Below, in pieces: positions 43,365-49,970 of a stretch of 64,000 nt of DNA (positions within the stretch are counted from its first letter, which is position 1; the number at the start of each line of letters is the position of its first letter). The position numbers and the translations under genes are program-made. Source of the DNA: Clostridium sp. (lineage in GTDB: Bacteria; Bacillota; Clostridia; Lachnospirales; Lachnospiraceae); contig JAISOV010000022.1 of NCBI GenBank assembly GCA_031275405.1, forward strand, positions 135 through 64,134, in the 5' to 3' direction. Below the pieces are notes generated by a model that was not told where the DNA came from, ran no database searches, and saw nothing but the letters and a program-made list of their open reading frames with translations.

Positions 43365-44894
43365 CTACGAGTTCATGCAGGCGTCCAGCTTTTTCAACTG
43401 TTCCTCGTCGGGTACTTTCCGACCGGAAGCCTGCTTGAACTGCGTGACTGCCTTGAATGCCTGGGGAATCGCGATATTCGTACCCGCTCCGGCGACACAG
43501 CCGCCCGGACAGGCCATGCCCTCGATCAGGCAGCCGTTCTTGCGCCCGGCTTTTGCCAGAAGAAGCATTTTCCGGCACTCCGACAGACCCTCCGCGTGTT
43601 CTATCTGTACCTTCGTACCCGGATAGTATTTCTTGATACACTCCTCGATCGCGCTCGCCACGCCTCCCGCCACGCCGTATCCGCGTCCGGCTCCGGTGGC
43701 GTCCCGCATTTCATCCAGCGCCTTGATTTCTTCCAAAAGGATCCCCTTGGCTTCAAACATCCCGGTCAGTTCCTCAAAGGTGATCACGAAATCCACGTCC
43801 GACCGCACAGTGCGCCGGGAAGCTTCCAGTTTCTTGGAAGCGCAGGGACCGATGAACACCACCGAAGCCTCGGGATGTTCCTTTTTGATCAGGCGGGCGG
43901 TAGCCACCATAGGGGTCAGCTCGTTGCTGATCTTGTCGATGGTTTCCGGGAACAGGCTTTTCGCCATCATCGCCCAGGACGGACAGCAGGAGGTCAGGCT
44001 AAACGGCAGCTTGCCGCCCGCCACTTCTTTCACGTAATTCTCCGCTTCTTTCATACAGCCGTGGTCGGCTCCGATAGCGGTTTCGTACACATCCGCGAAG
44101 CCCAGTTCTTTCAACGCGGACTTGAACACGTCCGGGGTCACTTTCGGCCCGAACTGCCCGACGAAAGCGGGCGCCACCTGGGCGATGATTTCCCTGCCGG
44201 ACTGGAGGGCGCGGATCAGCTGGAAAATCTGGGATTTGTCCGCGATGGCGCCAAAAGGGCAGCTTACCATGCACTGTCCGCAGGATACGCAGACCTCGTT
44301 GTCGATGACGGCGCGGCTCCTTAAGTCGCTTTTGATGGCGTCCACTCCGCAGGCCACCTTGCAGGGGCGTTCCCGGTGGGAAATGGCATCGTAAGGACAG
44401 ACCTGGATACATTTCCCGCATTTCACGCATTTTTCCTGATCAATATACGATTTTCCGTTCACCATCTGCATCGCGCCCGTGGGGCAGACCTCCCGGCAGG
44501 GATGGGCCACGCACCCCATGCAGACGTCCGTCACGTCATACCGGTTTTCCGGACAGGCATTGCAGGCGGAAGGGATCACCTGCATGAGGGGCGGCTCATA
44601 GTATTTTTCCTCAATGTTGCTCTCTTCCACGCCCTCCGTCAGGTGTCCGGGGCGGCTGCGGTTCTCCGGGCGCAGGCTCATACCCATCGCCAGGCGGATC
44701 CGCTCCCGGATGATCGCGCGGTCACGGTACACGCTCTCCCGGTAAACGGAATCTTCATAATCCACGATTTTATAAGGCAGGGCTTCCATATCGTCCTTCA
44801 AGTTCTTGGAATGGTAAGCCAGATCCGCTACTTCTTTGAAAACCCGTCTTCGGTTCTTGCGCACGGGCGTGTCAATTCCCCGCATCGTACTCAT
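43365..44894 (-). CDS. [FeFe] hydrogenase-like protein (group-B-type architecture with N-terminal ferredoxin-like clusters)
   Basis: It has several CxxCxxCxxxCP cluster motifs. The H-cluster signatures are TSCCPSW (L1), GPCASKKLE (L2) and MACPGGCVAGAG (L3). The ATG at 44894 is favoured because GGAAAGG lies 9 nt upstream. Confidence 0.85.
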   Translation of the reverse strand: MSTMRGIDTPVRKNRRRVFKEVADLAYHSKNLKDDMEALPYKIVDYEDSVYRESVYRDRAIIRERIRLAMGMSLRPENRSRPGHLTEGVEESNIEEKYYEPPLMQVIPSACNACPENRYDVTDVCMGCVAHPCREVCPTGAMQMVNGKSYIDQEKCVKCGKCIQVCPYDAISHRERPCKVACGVDAIKSDLRSRAVIDNEVCVSCGQCMVSCPFGAIADKSQIFQLIRALQSGREIIAQVAPAFVGQFGPKVTPDVFKSALKELGFADVYETAIGADHGCMKEAENYVKEVAGGKLPFSLTSCCPSWAMMAKSLFPETIDKISNELTPMVATARLIKKEHPEASVVFIGPCASKKLEASRRTVRSDVDFVITFEELTGMFEAKGILLEEIKALDEMRDATGAGRGYGVAGGVASAIEECIKKYYPGTKVQIEHAEGLSECRKMLLLAKAGRKNGCLIEGMACPGGCVAGAGTNIAIPQAFKAVTQFKQASGRKVPDEEQLKKLDACMNS

Positions 44895-45210
44895 GAAAAC
44901 CATCCTTTCCGCTGCTATCCGAAATCAAAAGGAAAGTCTCCGCCGGAAGCGCAGCGTTTCCAGTGGAAGCTGTCGCTTCTGCTCATTTTGATCACCATGC
45001 TCCTTCCAAGGTCTGGAGACTTTGTGCGTAGCACAAAGCTCCGGTTGAAAGAATGCAAGTCTTTCCACTTTGCCACAAGATTAATTTATCATCATTTCGC
45101 TTCCGGTTCAACCCCTATTTCGCTTCTTCCTGATATTACCCAAAATACCGCAAGAACAGCCGCCCGGATTCCGCAAGAGCAGCTGACGACCTCCGGCGGA
45201 AACTGCCGGA

Positions 45211-45309
45211 GGGACTTTCTACGTGCAAGCCGCTATTTCGCGGCGCGAAGTTCAGCAGGATTGCCGCGCCCGCGCCCGGACTTTCCGCGCACAAGCCGCC
45301 ATTTCGCGG
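45211..45309. repeat. two ~33-nt imperfect direct repeats, 66-bp period, intergenic
   Basis: gggactttctacgtgcaagccgctatttcgcgg (45211-45243) and cggactttccgcgcacaagccgccatttcgcgg (45277-45309) match at about 27 of 33 positions. Confidence 0.55.
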
Positions 45310-45351
45310 TTCCGGCGCGTCCGATCTGTTCCGGGCAGCCGCGGAGGACGG

Positions 45352-48300
45352 TCAGGGAGCGGGCCGCCGTCCTGCCGCCCATTTGTCAAAGGTCGCAAGC
45401 ATACCGGGCAGGACGAACAGGATCAGCAGGGTGGCCGACAGCGTACCCGCGGAAAGCGTCTGGCAGATGGTTCCGATTGCCGGGTCGCAGGGCAGCGTAC
45501 CTAACACTCCAAGCGCGAAGACCATAATCGAACCGGAAGTCATAATGGTATGAATCGAACCGTCATAAGCGGCGGTCAGAGCCTCCTGCACTTCCATTGT
45601 CCGCCGTTTTTCCCGATAGTAATTTGTGAACAGGATGCCGTAGTCAATCGTCGCGCCCATCAAGATACCTTGCACGATCAGACACGACAAATAGTACATG
45701 CTATACCCGAGCAGGCCGCTGACCGAAATCGTCAGGAACACACCGCACTGTACGATCAGCACAAGGATCATGGACACCGCGAGGGAGCGGAAAGCGACCG
45801 CCACGACGACGAAAATGGCCAGCGCCGTCAGTACGGTGATGAAGAGCATTTCGTTCCTGAAAGTTTTTGACATCTCATAGTTCATCGGCGAGCTTCCAAT
45901 CAGATAATAATCGCCCGTGAGCTTTTCCTCGCACATACGTTCAAGGCTGGAAAGGAATTCGCTGGTCTCATCGGACTCATCCGGCAGATCCGTTTCCAGG
46001 ATCCACCGTGAGTAATCAGCTCCTTTCAGCTGCAGGACGGCAGCGTCCAGTTCGGATTCCATCTCGGTGATTTCCGCGCGCAGGTCAGCGTCTATCATTT
46101 TTTCAAAACGCGGATCCTCCATCATAACGTCCGTCAGATAATCGAAGAGCGTCCGGATGGAAAGAGTCCACGACGGATCGCCGCTCTTCACGCTTGCGTA
46201 GTACAGAAAGAGCAGCCGGAGGGTGTCTTCACTCAAGTCGCCGCTCAGTCCGTCTATCAGATCGGCAAGTTCATCTGGCGTGTAGGTCTTTCCCGACACG
46301 ACCGCGTCAATAACGGTCTGCGCCAAGATCAGTTCATCGGCGGAAACCGCGTCAAACTGCTCCGCAAGATCTTTATCCGTGAGGACAGCGTCGATGATAA
46401 AGTCAACGAAAGCCCCAACCGACAGAACCCAGCCGCCCGTGTCGCCGTGTTCGCTGCGGTAGAGCAGATACAGCTGCTCCGTCTGCTCCGCGTCCATACC
46501 CACAAGGGACGATAAGTCGTCTGCGGAATATTCCGTACCCTCGACAGAACCGTTTATGAGCTTCTGAGCCGTTTTCAACTCCGCCAGCCGATCCGCGGCA
46601 AGCAGGGAACCGAAGGCTTCCCGGTTGCCGACCAGGAAATTGACGACCGTCTGGACGGACAGCCTCCACGAGTCCAGTTTCGTTCCGGAATCCCTCAGCG
46701 TGTAGATCATTTTCGCGGCGGCGCTTTCCATCCCGAACATCTGCGCCATCTGAGCGTGATCCAGCGCCGCGCCTGATGTGGACGCCTGCATCAGCGACTG
46801 CAGGAAAGCAAGCCGCGCGATCTTCTCTTCGGTAAACTGTGCCGAAAACGCGGGGTTCGGCACGAGCGCCGTCAGGGTGTAATCGATATATTCCATAGGG
46901 GACATGGTGGCGGACGGATCGCCCGCAGACCTCATCAGATAGATCTGTGAGACCTGGTCTGCATCCTCCCCGAGAAATGCGGCAAGCTCCGCGCCGGTCA
47001 TCTGTTTCTGAAGGAGCGCCGCGTCGGTATAGGGCAGCATAGCCTGTATCTGCCCCAGCAGCGCCGCGTCAAGCCATCCGGCAAACATCGGATTCCCCGC
47101 CACGTCATGCAGCAGGAAATCCAGGAACTCGGGAACAGCCATAGGCTCCGGCGTATAACGGTCAGACGAGGCGTAGCAGTAGACAAACAGCAGTCTCATC
47201 TGTTCCTCTTCCATTCCCAGGATCCGCGCCAGCGACGTGTAGGATTCGCGTGCCGTCATTTTTTCCGCATCGGTAAAATCGGCAAGCCTGCCAAGCCGCG
47301 CCAATGCGCCTGCGTCAAGCATTCCGGCATATTCGGGGCTGGCCGCCACATCTTTCACGACAAAATCCGAAAACTGCGGCAGGGTCATGGTTCCCGTATC
47401 CACACCCCCGTTTTGCGTATAGTAATACAGCAGCAGCTTTTCCGCCTGATCAGGCTCCATACCGAAAAAGCCGGCAAGCTCCGCCGCGCTCATCGGGCGG
47501 GTAAGGGCCGCCGCGTCCGAGAACTTAGAAAGACTGTCGCTATGCTCTTTGAGGTCGTCCGGGATCTGGCCGGCAAAGGTTTCATCGGCAGCCACCTCGT
47601 CGGCGACAAACCGCAGGAACTCCCCGGCTTCCACCGGATCGATCTTTCCGTGCGTATAATAGTCGTAGTAGAGAATCCGCAGCATAGCCGGGTCGAGAGC
47701 CAGATCAGAACCCATATCCTCCAGGACATCGGTAAGCTCCTCCGCCGTGTACGGCCTGCCGAGCGTGGACGCGTAACCGGAGGAACTCTTGACGTGCGGA
47801 TCCTTTTCGAGCTGTTCCGCGATTTCCGCGACCCGTTCCTCGTCCGCGTTCCGGTACAGCATGAGGATGGTATTCTTTTTCGGGAACACGTCGGCAATCG
47901 GATCCTCGGCGGTCAGTGAATAGGTAAGCTCCGTCGCCCTTTGCAGGAAAAAGGTTCCGACCAGCGTGACGACAAAAGCGCAGGCAAGGATGTGCCTGCC
48001 GCGAAAGCTGAACTTCGCCAGGCCGCCCAGAGGGATATGCGGAACCGGCTTCGCGGTCTTCCGGATCGCTTTGTCGAACAGGAGGATCAGCCCCGGCAGG
48101 ATGGTGAAGATGCAGAGCAGGCTGATCGCGACGCCTTTCGCCAGCACGATTCCGACGTCCGCCCCGATTTTGAAGCTCATAAACACAAGCATCAGCAAGC
48201 CGACCATCGTCGTCGCCGCGCTGCTGCTGATGGACAGGAAAGCGTTGCGCAGAGCGGTCTTCATGGCGTCCAGCCTGCTGCCGGCAAGCTGAGCCTCCTG

Positions 48301-48999
48301 GCGGTAACGGTTCATCAGCATGATCGAGTAGTCCATAGAAAGCACCAGCTGCAGGATCGCCGCGATGGAAAATGTGGTGCTGGATACCCTGCCCTGCATG
48401 AGGTTCGTACCCATATTGATCACAATCGCGCAGCCGATAGCGGCCAGGAACAGAAACGGCTCCACCCAGGAGCCGCACATTGCCAGCATGATCACGAGCA
48501 GGATCGCGAGCGCGATGGCGATCACCCACAGGGGGATTTCCAGAACGCCGGTGCTGTCGTTCGCAACCGTCACGTCATAGGCCGAAAAAATGTCCTTCAC
48601 CGAAGCTTCGATGGACTTTTCTTCGGCAGAATCATATGCGTAAGCGGTGTTCAGTACGAACAGGGTATAGCCGTCCTTGCGATAGTCCGCGCTGTCCGCG
48701 TCATACTCCACGCCGTCAACATAGGGCAGCGTTGCCAGCAGCGCCTGAACGTCGGCGGCCTGCCCCACATCCAGGCCGCCGAACATCACGCGGATGGTCT
48801 GTGCCGTTTCCGCTTGGGGAAATTCGGCGTCCATTTGATCAAGCCCCGCCCTCATAGAAGAATCATCCGGCAGATATTCCGTCGTGTCCGTGACGACTTC
48901 AACCTGCGGTATCAGCACCGCGCAGACTGCGGTAAGCAAAAGCATCACCGCAAGAACGAAGTACCGCTTGTCCACTACAAAGTTTGCCAGTTTTTTCAT
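45352..48999 (-). CDS. MMPL/RND-superfamily transporter with a repeat-expanded second extracytoplasmic loop
   Basis: The ATG at 48999 follows GGGAGGA. There are two ~6-TM bundles, at aa ~10-360 and in the last ~200 aa, with MMPL-like blocks (MDYSIMLMNRYRQE and GATIDYGILFTNYYRE). About 600 aa between them consist of seven related ~80-aa modules. Confidence 0.8.
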   Translation of the reverse strand: MKKLANFVVDKRYFVLAVMLLLTAVCAVLIPQVEVVTDTTEYLPDDSSMRAGLDQMDAEFPQAETAQTIRVMFGGLDVGQAADVQALLATLPYVDGVEYDADSADYRKDGYTLFVLNTAYAYDSAEEKSIEASVKDIFSAYDVTVANDSTGVLEIPLWVIAIALAILLVIMLAMCGSWVEPFLFLAAIGCAIVINMGTNLMQGRVSSTTFSIAAILQLVLSMDYSIMLMNRYRQEAQLAGSRLDAMKTALRNAFLSISSSAATTMVGLLMLVFMSFKIGADVGIVLAKGVAISLLCIFTILPGLILLFDKAIRKTAKPVPHIPLGGLAKFSFRGRHILACAFVVTLVGTFFLQRATELTYSLTAEDPIADVFPKKNTILMLYRNADEERVAEIAEQLEKDPHVKSSSGYASTLGRPYTAEELTDVLEDMGSDLALDPAMLRILYYDYYTHGKIDPVEAGEFLRFVADEVAADETFAGQIPDDLKEHSDSLSKFSDAAALTRPMSAAELAGFFGMEPDQAEKLLLYYYTQNGGVDTGTMTLPQFSDFVVKDVAASPEYAGMLDAGALARLGRLADFTDAEKMTARESYTSLARILGMEEEQMRLLFVYCYASSDRYTPEPMAVPEFLDFLLHDVAGNPMFAGWLDAALLGQIQAMLPYTDAALLQKQMTGAELAAFLGEDADQVSQIYLMRSAGDPSATMSPMEYIDYTLTALVPNPAFSAQFTEEKIARLAFLQSLMQASTSGAALDHAQMAQMFGMESAAAKMIYTLRDSGTKLDSWRLSVQTVVNFLVGNREAFGSLLAADRLAELKTAQKLINGSVEGTEYSADDLSSLVGMDAEQTEQLYLLYRSEHGDTGGWVLSVGAFVDFIIDAVLTDKDLAEQFDAVSADELILAQTVIDAVVSGKTYTPDELADLIDGLSGDLSEDTLRLLFLYYASVKSGDPSWTLSIRTLFDYLTDVMMEDPRFEKMIDADLRAEITEMESELDAAVLQLKGADYSRWILETDLPDESDETSEFLSSLERMCEEKLTGDYYLIGSSPMNYEMSKTFRNEMLFITVLTALAIFVVVAVAFRSLAVSMILVLIVQCGVFLTISVSGLLGYSMYYLSCLIVQGILMGATIDYGILFTNYYREKRRTMEVQEALTAAYDGSIHTIMTSGSIMVFALGVLGTLPCDPAIGTICQTLSAGTLSATLLILFVLPGMLATFDKWAAGRRPAP

Positions 49000-49274
49000 G
49001 AATCCTGTCCTCCCAAAAATTTGCTCCCTACTGCCCGCTTTGGCGGGCGCGCCCGTTACCGCTCGGCAGGAAGATCCCGCGAAGTAAGGATAACGCCCCG
49101 CCGAACCTGAATGTGTTGCGAAAAACATCTTTGGCATTGCTCAAGGCTGTTGACTGGAGCAGAATTGGCCTTAAAAAGAAAATGCTCCTTGCTGCGCTCC
49201 ATCCCGATAAACTTTTATAAGTCCTTTTTTCTGAAAAGTAAATGCTGTTGCCGTGGGTCACCAAAACCCAGCCA

Positions 49275-49303
49275 TTGACTTTTTCGACTATCAGTATTAT
49301 GAT
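49275..49303 (+). promoter_or_regulatory. candidate promoter of the TetR gene, followed by palindromes
   Basis: ttgact lies at 49275-49280, followed by 17 nt and tatgat at 49298-49303. Downstream are the palindromes gacttaaagtc (49313-49323) and gtttactt-N13-aagtaaac (49332-49360), which are possible operators. Confidence 0.45.
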
Positions 49304-49424
49304 ACAAGTATGGACTTAAAGTCAACCGACTGTTTACTTATAAATAGAATCCAAGTAAACAAAATGAATACAATCTGTTCTAAGCTCAACACTTTGATTG
49401 AATTAGTTGAGTAGGAGGCGCCAA

Positions 49425-49970
49425 ATGAACACAAAGCCCGAAAATCAGCGGATTCGCCTAAGCAAGGCCCTGCTCAAGAATGCCCTCATCGAACTTCTCT
49501 GGGAAAAAAATATCGAAAAGATTTCGATTTATGAATTGTGCGACAGGGCGCAGATCAACCGCACGACCTTTTATAAATACTACGGCGACCAGTACGCCCT
49601 GCTTGAGGACATTGAAAACGACTGGCTTTTGGCATTGGAGCGGCATTTCAGTTTCGGACAGGCTCAGGATCTGGTGGCCCTGACAAACGTGCTGGAATAT
49701 CTGGAGTCCGAGCGCGACAAGTTCCGCGTCCTGTTCAACTCCTCCCTGGAAAAAGAATTCTCGCTCAAGCTGTTCAACCTGCCGACAGTGGTCAGCACGC
49801 TGAACCTGCGTTTTCTGGAAGACCGTCCGGAACATCTGAGGAACTACATCTATATTTTTGTCTGCCAAGGCTGCTATGCCGTGATCCGCCAATGGCTGAA
49901 TGACGACATACGCGCTCCCGCAGGCGAAATCGCGGAACTGCTGCAATTCATGCTGAACTATCGGTTTTAA
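49425..49970 (+). CDS. TetR/AcrR family transcriptional regulator
   Basis: GTAGGAGG lies upstream of the ATG at 49425. The HTH region is IEKISIYELCDRAQINRTTFYKYYGDQY. The gene is divergent from the MMPL gene. Confidence 0.85.
   Translation: MNTKPENQRIRLSKALLKNALIELLWEKNIEKISIYELCDRAQINRTTFYKYYGDQYALLEDIENDWLLALERHFSFGQAQDLVALTNVLEYLESERDKFRVLFNSSLEKEFSLKLFNLPTVVSTLNLRFLEDRPEHLRNYIYIFVCQGCYAVIRQWLNDDIRAPAGEIAELLQFMLNYRF

Follow-up and report, generated by a model that had tools for sequence, protein, structure and literature searches.

A tandem array of seven helical modules in a Clostridium MMPL exporter is predicted to fold back into an outward-facing stalk

The window analysed here, a stretch of 64,000 nucleotides from Clostridium sp. 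(Lachnospiraceae; assembly GCA_031275405.1, contig JAISOV010000022.1, positions 135 to 64,134), encodes an exporter with a long modular insert. The exporter gene lies on the minus strand at 45352..48999 and encodes 1215 amino acids plus a stop codon (protein P0003). It belongs to the MMPL branch within the RND (resistance-nodulation-division) superfamily. A divergent gene on the plus strand at 49425..49970 encodes a TetR-family regulator with the Pfam domains TetR_N and TetR_C_8. Seven modules of the exporter form an array of 577 residues (P0003 409-985, window 46045..47775) that is predicted to fold back on itself as a hairpin and may extend the exit path of the exporter.

The downstream of two starts in the exporter reading frame is almost certainly the true one, judging from the sequence signals around it. 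The open reading frame (ORF) at 45352..49137 on the minus strand is open throughout and has no internal stops. Its longer form from the ORF finder begins at 49137 and has 1261 amino acids, 46 residues more than P0003. The ATG at 48999 is preceded by a ribosome-binding site (GGGAGGA), and the database copy of P0003 and 22 aligned homologs have the same MKK start.

The gene product is an MMPL-branch exporter of the RND superfamily, as the first-pass annotation of this DNA had proposed. The Pfam model PF03176 (MMPL) matches both halves of the protein, in two stretches and with a score of 142.2 bits (cut-off 20.5), and the MMPL, HAE3, and HpnN models of NCBIfam match below threshold. A profile of 23 homologs finds chains of MmpL4, MmpL5, and MmpL3 in the PDB at E values of 5e-22 to 3e-7. 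Hydropathy and the full-length AlphaFold2 model give 12 transmembrane (TM) helices in two bundles of six, with a long insert in the outward-facing loop after TM7. The model has a mean predicted local distance difference test score (pLDDT) of 77 and a predicted template modelling score (pTM) of 0.50, and it places porter domains with beta-alpha-beta-beta-alpha-beta topology after TM1 and after TM7. TM4 contains the motif SMDYS and TM10 the motif TIDYG, and the residue pairs D216/Y217 and D1112/Y1113 are invariant in the 23 homologs. Such Asp-Tyr pairs in TM4 and TM10 form the proton relay described for MmpL3. In a Foldseek search with the full-length model the top PDB matches are the MmpL5 and MmpL4 entries with a resolved coiled-coil domain, followed by other MmpL4 and MmpL5 entries, HpnN, NPC1/Patched, and MmpL3. 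The E values for MmpL5, MmpL4, HpnN, and MmpL3 range from 2e-18 to 1e-9.

The loop between TM7 and TM8 contains an internal repeat of seven modules. A BLOSUM62 diagonal-window scan of the protein against itself finds repeat diagonals at offsets of 82, 164, 247, 321, 403, and 489 residues, with window scores up to 74 compared to maxima of 25-42 in 20 shuffles of the loop. A lack of internal similarity is thereby ruled out, and the period is about 82 residues. Self-BLAST of the protein gives the identity match alone and no internal repeat. The modules are 79-88 amino acids long, align over about 83 columns, and share 16-30% mutual identity. Each has the motif ELAxxxGM..LYxxY, then FxDF, then a helical tail. 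The array had been placed at 46050-47790, which agrees closely with the measured limits, and its motifs are as then described. The distance from TM7 to the last TM bundle had been given as about 580 residues; it is actually about 700, made up of the 577-residue array and about 123 residues of ordinary porter domain in two halves. A profile made from the seven modules of the window alone recovers 5-11 modules in all 67 of the homologs searched (67/67). No DNA-level tandem repeat was found in the array. Given this and the low identity of the copies, the duplication is ancient and an assembly artefact is not an issue.

The array is inserted between two strands of porter domain 2. The first half of this domain (beta-alpha-beta) is P0003 353-408, encoded at 47776..47943 on the minus strand just before the array. 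In the numbering of the AlphaFold2 model it consists of strand 369-376, helix 377-391, and strand 396-401, and it mirrors the first half of porter domain 1. The second half (beta-alpha-beta) is P0003 986-1051 (45847..46044, minus strand), just after the array, with strand 989-996, helix 1003-1019, and strand 1024-1027. The array therefore occupies the gap from strand 396-401 to strand 989-996, a place that in porter domain 1 holds a hairpin of 12 residues, and this position means that both ends of the array must meet. The earlier description of a loop expanded into modules is right about a long, modular, outward-facing insert after TM7, but the array is inserted in a porter domain that is otherwise normal. 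All seven modules are encoded on the minus strand. Modules 1, 2, and 3 are P0003 409-495 (47515..47775), 495-577 (47269..47517), and 579-659 (47023..47265). Module 4 is P0003 659-738 (46786..47025). Modules 5, 6, and 7 are P0003 738-816 (46552..46788), 816-898 (46306..46554), and 898-985 (46045..46308). The array is strongly acidic, with an isoelectric point (pI) of 4.1 and a net charge of about -60, and the family median pI is 4.3. Module 5 is the only one that is not acidic (pI 8.4 compared to 4.05-4.4 in the other six).

The module corresponds to no described domain as far as sequence and model searches can tell, and weak or absent matches are no proof of a new fold. A model of a single module (module 2) has a pLDDT of 86.8 and a pTM of 0.76, and it has about six short helices and two one-residue strands. 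In the full-length model the helices within modules are 4-20 residues long. Pfam searches with single modules give only noise (E values up to 10), and NCBIfam searches match transporter models alone and none for the module. Foldseek (best E 1.5) and an exhaustive VIA-align search (best Z 4.9) find no convincing PDB match to the single-module model. Thus the module folds confidently in prediction and has no significant known match, and it is apparently not an already described domain. Its distribution is patchy, and it is not common in the transporter family. A profile of 120 modules searched against the PDB finds nothing except 8vd6, a de novo designed repeat protein (PMC12339374). Its five matches come from a 22-residue motif resembling a helix-turn-helix, each with a domain E value of about 100, and the hit is an artefact of summing the scores of this one motif. 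Resemblances to EF-hand, SAM, UBA, and SLH domains in Foldseek and VIA-align are all within noise. EF-hand proteins account for about 14 of 50 weak Foldseek rows, with a template modelling score of about 0.35 and E values above 1, and the module model has two short strands bridging two helix pairs. No EF-hand model of Pfam scores on the modules, and by eye their loops do not have the DxDxDG pattern. Look-alikes of the module model in the ESM Atlas are Bacillota MMPL proteins or unnamed fragments. A feature search of the protein atlas gives no usable match outside MMPL proteins, and literature searches found no published description of the module. Two further features of the module sequence can be mentioned. 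Each module resembles two half-units of a short strand and two helices (for example, MSAAELAGFF is like MTLPQFSDFV; model mac692a14f2d1). In addition, the first half resembles the helix-turn-helix motif TxxELAxxLGM, and this likeness probably explains stray Sigma70_r4_2 matches on the homolog P0027 as well as the match to the designed repeat protein.

The number of modules varies among relatives, and odd numbers are preferred. The survey of homologs found from one to about 14 modules. Relatives of ordinary length (728 and 776 amino acids) have one module at the same site, and the others have three to about 14. Module numbers were estimated from array length in 94 complete representatives at 50% identity or less. 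Three modules are found in two proteins, four in one, five in 19, six in 12, seven in 24, eight in eight, nine in 18, eleven in eight, and thirteen in two. The number is odd in 73 of the 94 proteins and even in 21, for a binomial p value of 7e-8 that overstates the significance since the relatives are not independent. Array lengths peak at about 417, 577, 738, 885, and 1060 amino acids. A closed ring or toroid would be another way to join the two ends of an array, and it is ruled out by module numbers from 1 to 13.

The order of module types is also conserved. Position-specific profiles from 24 proteins with seven modules were applied to 129 other proteins. The first module is typed as 1 in 123 of the 129 proteins, and the last module is typed as 7 in all but one (128/129). 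A type from the second arm (5-7) comes ahead of a type from the first arm (1-3) in only two of the 129, and the counts of first-arm and second-arm types differ by 0.48 on average. The score margins of many middle modules are small, and individual type strings should therefore not be over-read. The commonest strings are 1234567 (18 proteins), 123444567 (17), 12467 and 12344567 (seven each), 123567 (six), and 12344444567 (three). In the commonest relatives with eight, nine, and eleven modules it is thus the type-4-like modules that are multiplied. Some lineages have mirror-image expansions, for example 12233455667, 12323456567, and 1222337556667. Types 3 and 5, and likewise types 2 and 6, tend to co-occur, to be absent together, or to multiply together. 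The best explanation is that relatives lengthen or shorten a stalk mostly two modules at a time.

Complex prediction suggests that the two arms of the array pair with each other in antiparallel fashion. Modules 1-3 and modules 5-7 were submitted as two separate chains, with no linkage or register information. The interface score (ipSAE) is 0.65 in three runs, while the best of three controls scores 0.00. An ipSAE of 0.65 is reached by 58 of 80 solved complexes and by two of 110 mismatched pairs, a calibration that is only rough because the alignments made in this work were used as input. At least 91% of contacts are shared between the runs, and the partner pLDDT is 82. All of the 25 contacts with the lowest error pair module 1 with 7, module 2 with 6, or module 3 with 5. 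The predicted 1:7 contacts involve Y445/I442 with Y933, A935, and S936. The 2:6 contacts involve L508/L522 with F864 and T539 with Y824. In the 3:5 pair, F605/V606/Y609/A610 contact K763-L768 and W778, and M581-A583 contact S781-Q783. In the predicted interface, which covers over half of each arm, about 60% of the residues are hydrophobic compared to about 30% elsewhere. The conserved LYxxY helices and the short strands lie in it. In the predicted register the end of module 3 lies beside the start of module 5, which lets module 4 bridge the arms as the tip. The start of module 1 likewise lies beside the end of module 7, which lets these two modules plug into porter domain 2. The predicted pairing agrees with three independent arguments, from topology, parity preference, and type order. 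An antiparallel hairpin stalk with module 4 at its tip is therefore a fairly well supported architecture, as a model. New in this analysis are the site of insertion, the preference for odd numbers, the types' fixed polarity and mirror-like order, and the hairpin predicted to pair 1:7, 2:6, and 3:5.

These results are hard to reconcile with modules that act as independent beads. The modules could be separate units on a flexible loop that serves as a multivalent binding, substrate-capture, or sensor domain, with their number setting the avidity. It fits such an arrangement that a single module is predicted to fold alone with good confidence and that single-module relatives exist. Yet the odd-number preference, the fixed end types, and the mirror-ordered types are left without a reason, and the arms are predicted to bind each other over half of their residues through a largely hydrophobic interface. 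The most conserved residues are aromatics in this interface rather than in a surface pocket. Independent beads are accordingly an unlikely reading. The idea of a spacer or binding array from the first-pass annotation survives in part, in that the domain is modular, long, and outward-facing, but a linear spacer or independent binding units are disfavoured relative to a two-armed stalk by type order, parity, and the complex prediction, and the acidic array offers no support for binding of anionic wall polymers.

Several points weigh against the hairpin stalk. The full-length model has a pTM of just 0.50. The controls in the complex prediction were unrelated proteins, so any two homologous helical arrays might pack side by side in the same way, and the prediction ran on alignments from this work. 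The hairpin was read from predicted scores and contact lists and not from coordinates. The parity test takes related, non-independent proteins, and with even numbers in 21 of the 94 proteins parity is a preference and not a rule. The small margins for many middle modules affect the typing. In addition, the single module of the 728-amino-acid relative (L013) has the type of a base module (7 or 1) rather than that of a tip, for which reason the single module was rejected as the ancestral tip. Finally, the array is also found in heterodimeric ATP-binding cassette (ABC) exporters, on one subunit only.

The ABC exporters confirm independently that the array faces outward. Four clusters of ABC exporters carry it (P0045, P0057, P0064, and P0101). 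Seven modules are detected in P0045, P0057, and P0101, and six in P0064. Module types were assigned in P0045 and P0101, and in both they run from 1 to 7 in order as in the window protein. The P0045 array is 37% identical to that of the window, which is within the range among MMPL arrays. In the three that were inspected (P0045, P0057, and P0064) the array lies between TM1 (residues 12-30) and TM2 (about 660-760), which is extracellular loop 1. The operon of P0045 (L098:5246-11626, on a JGI metagenome contig) encodes a TetR regulator, as is found upstream of the window protein, then the 1263-residue ABC subunit with the array, and then a normal ABC partner of 605 residues. These proteins differ from the window protein in having the fold of ATP-driven type-I exporters and in carrying the array on one subunit of two. 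Since there is one such subunit per heterodimer, one copy of the cassette in each transporter is functional or at the least tolerated, and a tube of three stalks as proposed for MmpL5 cannot be the general mechanism. The ABC carriers are rare, with four clusters compared to hundreds of MMPL carriers, and transfer from MMPL to ABC exporters is therefore the more economical reading. Beside the L098 operon lie genes for a sortase and for a surface protein (CLIPPER/DUF6923) with more than 1600 residues.

The positions in the two carriers put the base of the array at the rim of the substrate exit in both. A further reading is that the array gates or plugs the porter domain exit and so regulates export, for example by opening only on contact with a ligand or the wall. 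Attachment of both ends beside the exit side of porter domain 2, and at the rim of the outward-facing cavity in the ABC exporters, would suit a gate. However, a plug needs no length variation, and module numbers run from 1 to 13; no evidence of alternative conformations was obtained. A gate is thus very improbable. A bolder version of the stalk is a portable, self-contained exit cassette of adjustable length that would serve exporters in monoderm bacteria. Lipophilic substrates would move through the wall along an aromatic-lined seam between the antiparallel arms of a single stalk that needs no accessory proteins, which would be the reason that it could move between RND/MMPL and ABC exporters, and its length would be re-tuned by pairs of modules. 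This version is offered only tentatively, and it may well be wrong. The hydrophobic seam could either carry the substrate or simply hold the two arms together.

The closest known systems are the mycobacterial exporters MmpL4 and MmpL5 (cluster I; PDB 9mvz, 9syt, and 8zkp), which share the superfamily and fold and are the best structural matches of the full-length model. The 196-residue insert of MmpL5 and the insert S491-Y685 of MmpL4, both in the second porter domain, form an antiparallel coiled coil of about 13 nm. This coiled coil is essential for efflux, namely for export of siderophores and bedaquiline, and it has been proposed to act as a trimer tube or as a periplasm-spanning scaffold (PMC12501195, PMC11850643). 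Like the array, it is a large insert in porter domain 2 (PD2/PC) whose ends meet and whose chain runs out and back as an antiparallel hairpin, although here the hairpin is a prediction. A regulator of the TetR type is a further likeness, as one reportedly controls the MmpS5L5 operon of M. abscessus (PMC5895659). Unlike the mycobacterial insert of about 196 residues, which consists of two long helices, the window insert has 577 residues in seven globular helical modules, and it does not have the form of a two-helix antiparallel coiled coil. The two have no detectable sequence relation, and they share their position at the level of the porter domain. The hosts also differ, since MmpL4 and MmpL5 occur in organisms with a mycomembrane and the window organism is a Gram-positive monoderm. 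Moreover, the insert of the window type varies widely in length and also occurs in ABC exporters. The neighbours in the window include no MmpS-like partner gene, and at the level of loci the TetR gene is the only conserved neighbour in 80 related ones; a small, unrelated partner encoded elsewhere in the genome is conceivable. The array is analogous and not homologous to the coiled-coil insert of MmpL4 and MmpL5.

Two other RND systems resemble the window protein in part. HpnN of Burkholderia (PDB 5khn and 5khs) is a structural match with an E value of about 1e-12, and the HpnN models of NCBIfam score on the window protein. The module profile has no sequence match to HpnN in the PDB. HpnN reportedly has extra helical periplasmic subdomains atop its porter domains that lengthen the lipid path. 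These subdomains are single and not tandem, and the host is a diderm. FarE of Staphylococcus aureus, with its regulator FarR, is like the window system a Firmicute MMPL/RND exporter with a divergent gene of the TetR family (PMC10019231, PMC8844917). It is a fatty-acid efflux pump and the best-studied inducible pump for antimicrobial amphiphiles in monoderms. Compared by description only, FarE has no reported modular insert, and the window regulator differs from FarR in its TetR_C_8 ligand domain.

Taken together, the data lean modestly toward a folded-back stalk that extends the exit path of a TetR-controlled exporter into the Gram-positive wall. In this model, in which the exit role and the nature of the substrate are argued by analogy, the exporter would be proton-driven and the divergent regulator would probably repress its gene. 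The short hairpin between the halves of porter domain 2 would be replaced by seven helical modules of about 82 residues. Modules 1-3 would run up, module 4 would form the tip, and modules 5-7 would run down, with the arms paired 1:7, 2:6, and 3:5 via the LYxxY-bearing helix and the short strands. The outcome would be a compact, very acidic stalk of about four layers, with both ends plugged into porter domain 2 beside the substrate exit. Through the stalk, the exit path of the substrate, a hydrophobic or amphiphilic compound, would reach away from the membrane into the thick wall, and the number of module pairs would set the length of the stalk. The hosts appear to have such a wall. Wall-less hosts among the carriers labelled Tenericutes would speak against a wall-related role, but all five carrier genomes tested, two of them with that label, have five or six matches to penicillin-binding transpeptidases.

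The main rival is that the stalk is a scaffold, ruler, or anchor, and that the substrate leaves the porter domain directly. A stalk of this kind could set the distance between pump and wall, keep peptidoglycan off the exit, or dock partners or wall polymers at its tip. A folded-back rod fits this role equally well, and the variable length suggests tuning to envelope dimensions. Anchoring is likewise a proposed role of the coiled coil in MmpL4 (PMC11850643). Among the weak fold resemblances of the module is an SLH domain (8bz2, Z 4.0), but this match is within noise for helical domains. Wall-binding modules are usually basic. The array, unlike them, is strongly acidic, and this weighs weakly against binding of anionic wall polymers. 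No neighbour gene besides the TetR regulator is conserved, which is also at odds with docking of a partner. A scaffold thus seems less than probable, though it merits serious attention, and the exit-extending stalk is the preferred explanation.

A second type of stalk in RND pumps would be relevant to export across Gram-positive walls. It is poorly understood how hydrophobic molecules pass from the membrane across the thick, hydrated wall, and among RND pumps a built-in stalk has been worked out only for MmpL4 and MmpL5, as their coiled coil, in work of 2025. If the stalk is real, the window family would be a second solution that evolved independently and uses a new small domain. Stalks in porter domain 2 are already known from MMPL exporters; a portable, length-variable module that would build the stalk is new. 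The natural length variants and the ABC graft make several questions directly testable: whether length follows the envelope, whether the stalk is a conduit or a scaffold, and whether one copy is enough. Members of the family occur commonly in uncultured Firmicutes from termite, rabbit, mouse, and human guts, where export of and resistance to amphiphiles are ecologically important.

The distribution of the module is narrow and patchy. Among 1.84 billion representative proteins, the module profile matches 593 clusters at an E value of 1e-3 or less and 209 at 1e-30 or less. The best 150 of the 593 clusters are nearly all Bacillota MMPL proteins, with one ABC exporter and a few fragments. The module gene is found in ten of 401 whole genomes of the class, and none was found outside the class in a sample of 401 genomes of the phylum. 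In its own genome of 2.98 Mb the transporter gene is the only one with modules. Its close relatives belong to uncultured Clostridia and Bacilli from the guts of rabbits, mice, humans, and termites. The sequencing runs that contain the window DNA comprise one termite-gut metagenome, which may be its source, and no RNA run is listed. About 14 modules are present in P0070 (1873 amino acids), together with an extension of about 190 residues at the N-terminus. Several short representatives of 271-572 residues (P0123, P0153, P0172, P0195, P0207, and P0215) contain nothing but modules. Most likely these are fragments from short contigs, although they could be free-standing array proteins.

The TetR regulator probably represses the transporter gene. 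An AGGAGG sequence lies ahead of its ATG at 49425. A TetR homolog is divergent from the transporter gene and 50-250 bp upstream of it in at least 46 of the 80 related loci; the search used a single sequence, which makes this count a minimum. No other neighbour is conserved across these loci. The 423-bp spacer has three perfect inverted pairs of 8-mers compared to 0.29 in shuffles (custom scan), and no inverted repeats of ten or more bases were found in it. Two promoter-like sites were found, compared to 0.9 expected, and they overlap face to face at 49275..49325 as consensus matches only. The site TTGACT-17-TATGAT on the plus strand (49275-49303) faces the TetR gene, and TTGACT-18-CATAAT on the minus strand (49325-49296) faces the transporter gene. 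The inverted repeat TTGACTTT / AAAGTCAA consists of the two -35 boxes of these sites. A second inverted repeat, GTTTACTT-N13-AAGTAAAC at 49332..49361, is on its sequence the better candidate for a TetR operator, and its half-site AAGTAAA recurs at 49236-49242. The first-pass annotation had described a divergent TetR gene with palindromes in the spacer. The orientation and the short inverted repeats hold up and the gene is a conserved partner, but one of the palindromes is explained by the -35 boxes. Its proposal of ligand-controlled expression is plausible by analogy. If the minus-strand promoter-like site is real, the transporter mRNA would have a leader of about 290 nucleotides (49002-49290). 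The 46 extra codons of the long ORF fall within this putative leader, and a GC-rich stem-loop (GCCCGC-tttg-GCGGGC, 49035-49050) lies shortly upstream of the ribosome-binding site.

The other genes near the transporter are unrelated to it and include a hydrogenase-like gene, gltX, uvrD, and an aminotransferase gene. The gap of 450 bp between the transporter and the hydrogenase-like gene (44904-45351) has one terminator-like hairpin, on the plus strand only. A plus-strand ORF of 383 amino acids at 44376-45527 lies opposite the transporter gene and overlaps its 3' end; this ORF has no Pfam match and is probably not a gene. In eight of the 80 related loci, from vertebrate-gut genomes, a gene of the choloylglycine (bile-salt) hydrolase family adjoins the array MMPL gene (for example, L020:9675-10649), which is a possible hint of bile-acid handling in that lineage. 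A bile-acid link was rejected for the window transporter, as the eight loci are few and probably related and the link is inapplicable to an organism of the termite gut. The same genome encodes a second RND pump, P0216, which is AcrB-like and has at least 1350 residues (G000 contig C13, L104:2912-6964, minus strand). Its first outward loop contains a heptad-like stretch of about 350 residues rich in Glu, Lys, Ala, and Leu (about residues 175-520) that by eye looks like a long coiled coil. The organism may thus have two differently built RND pumps with stalks.

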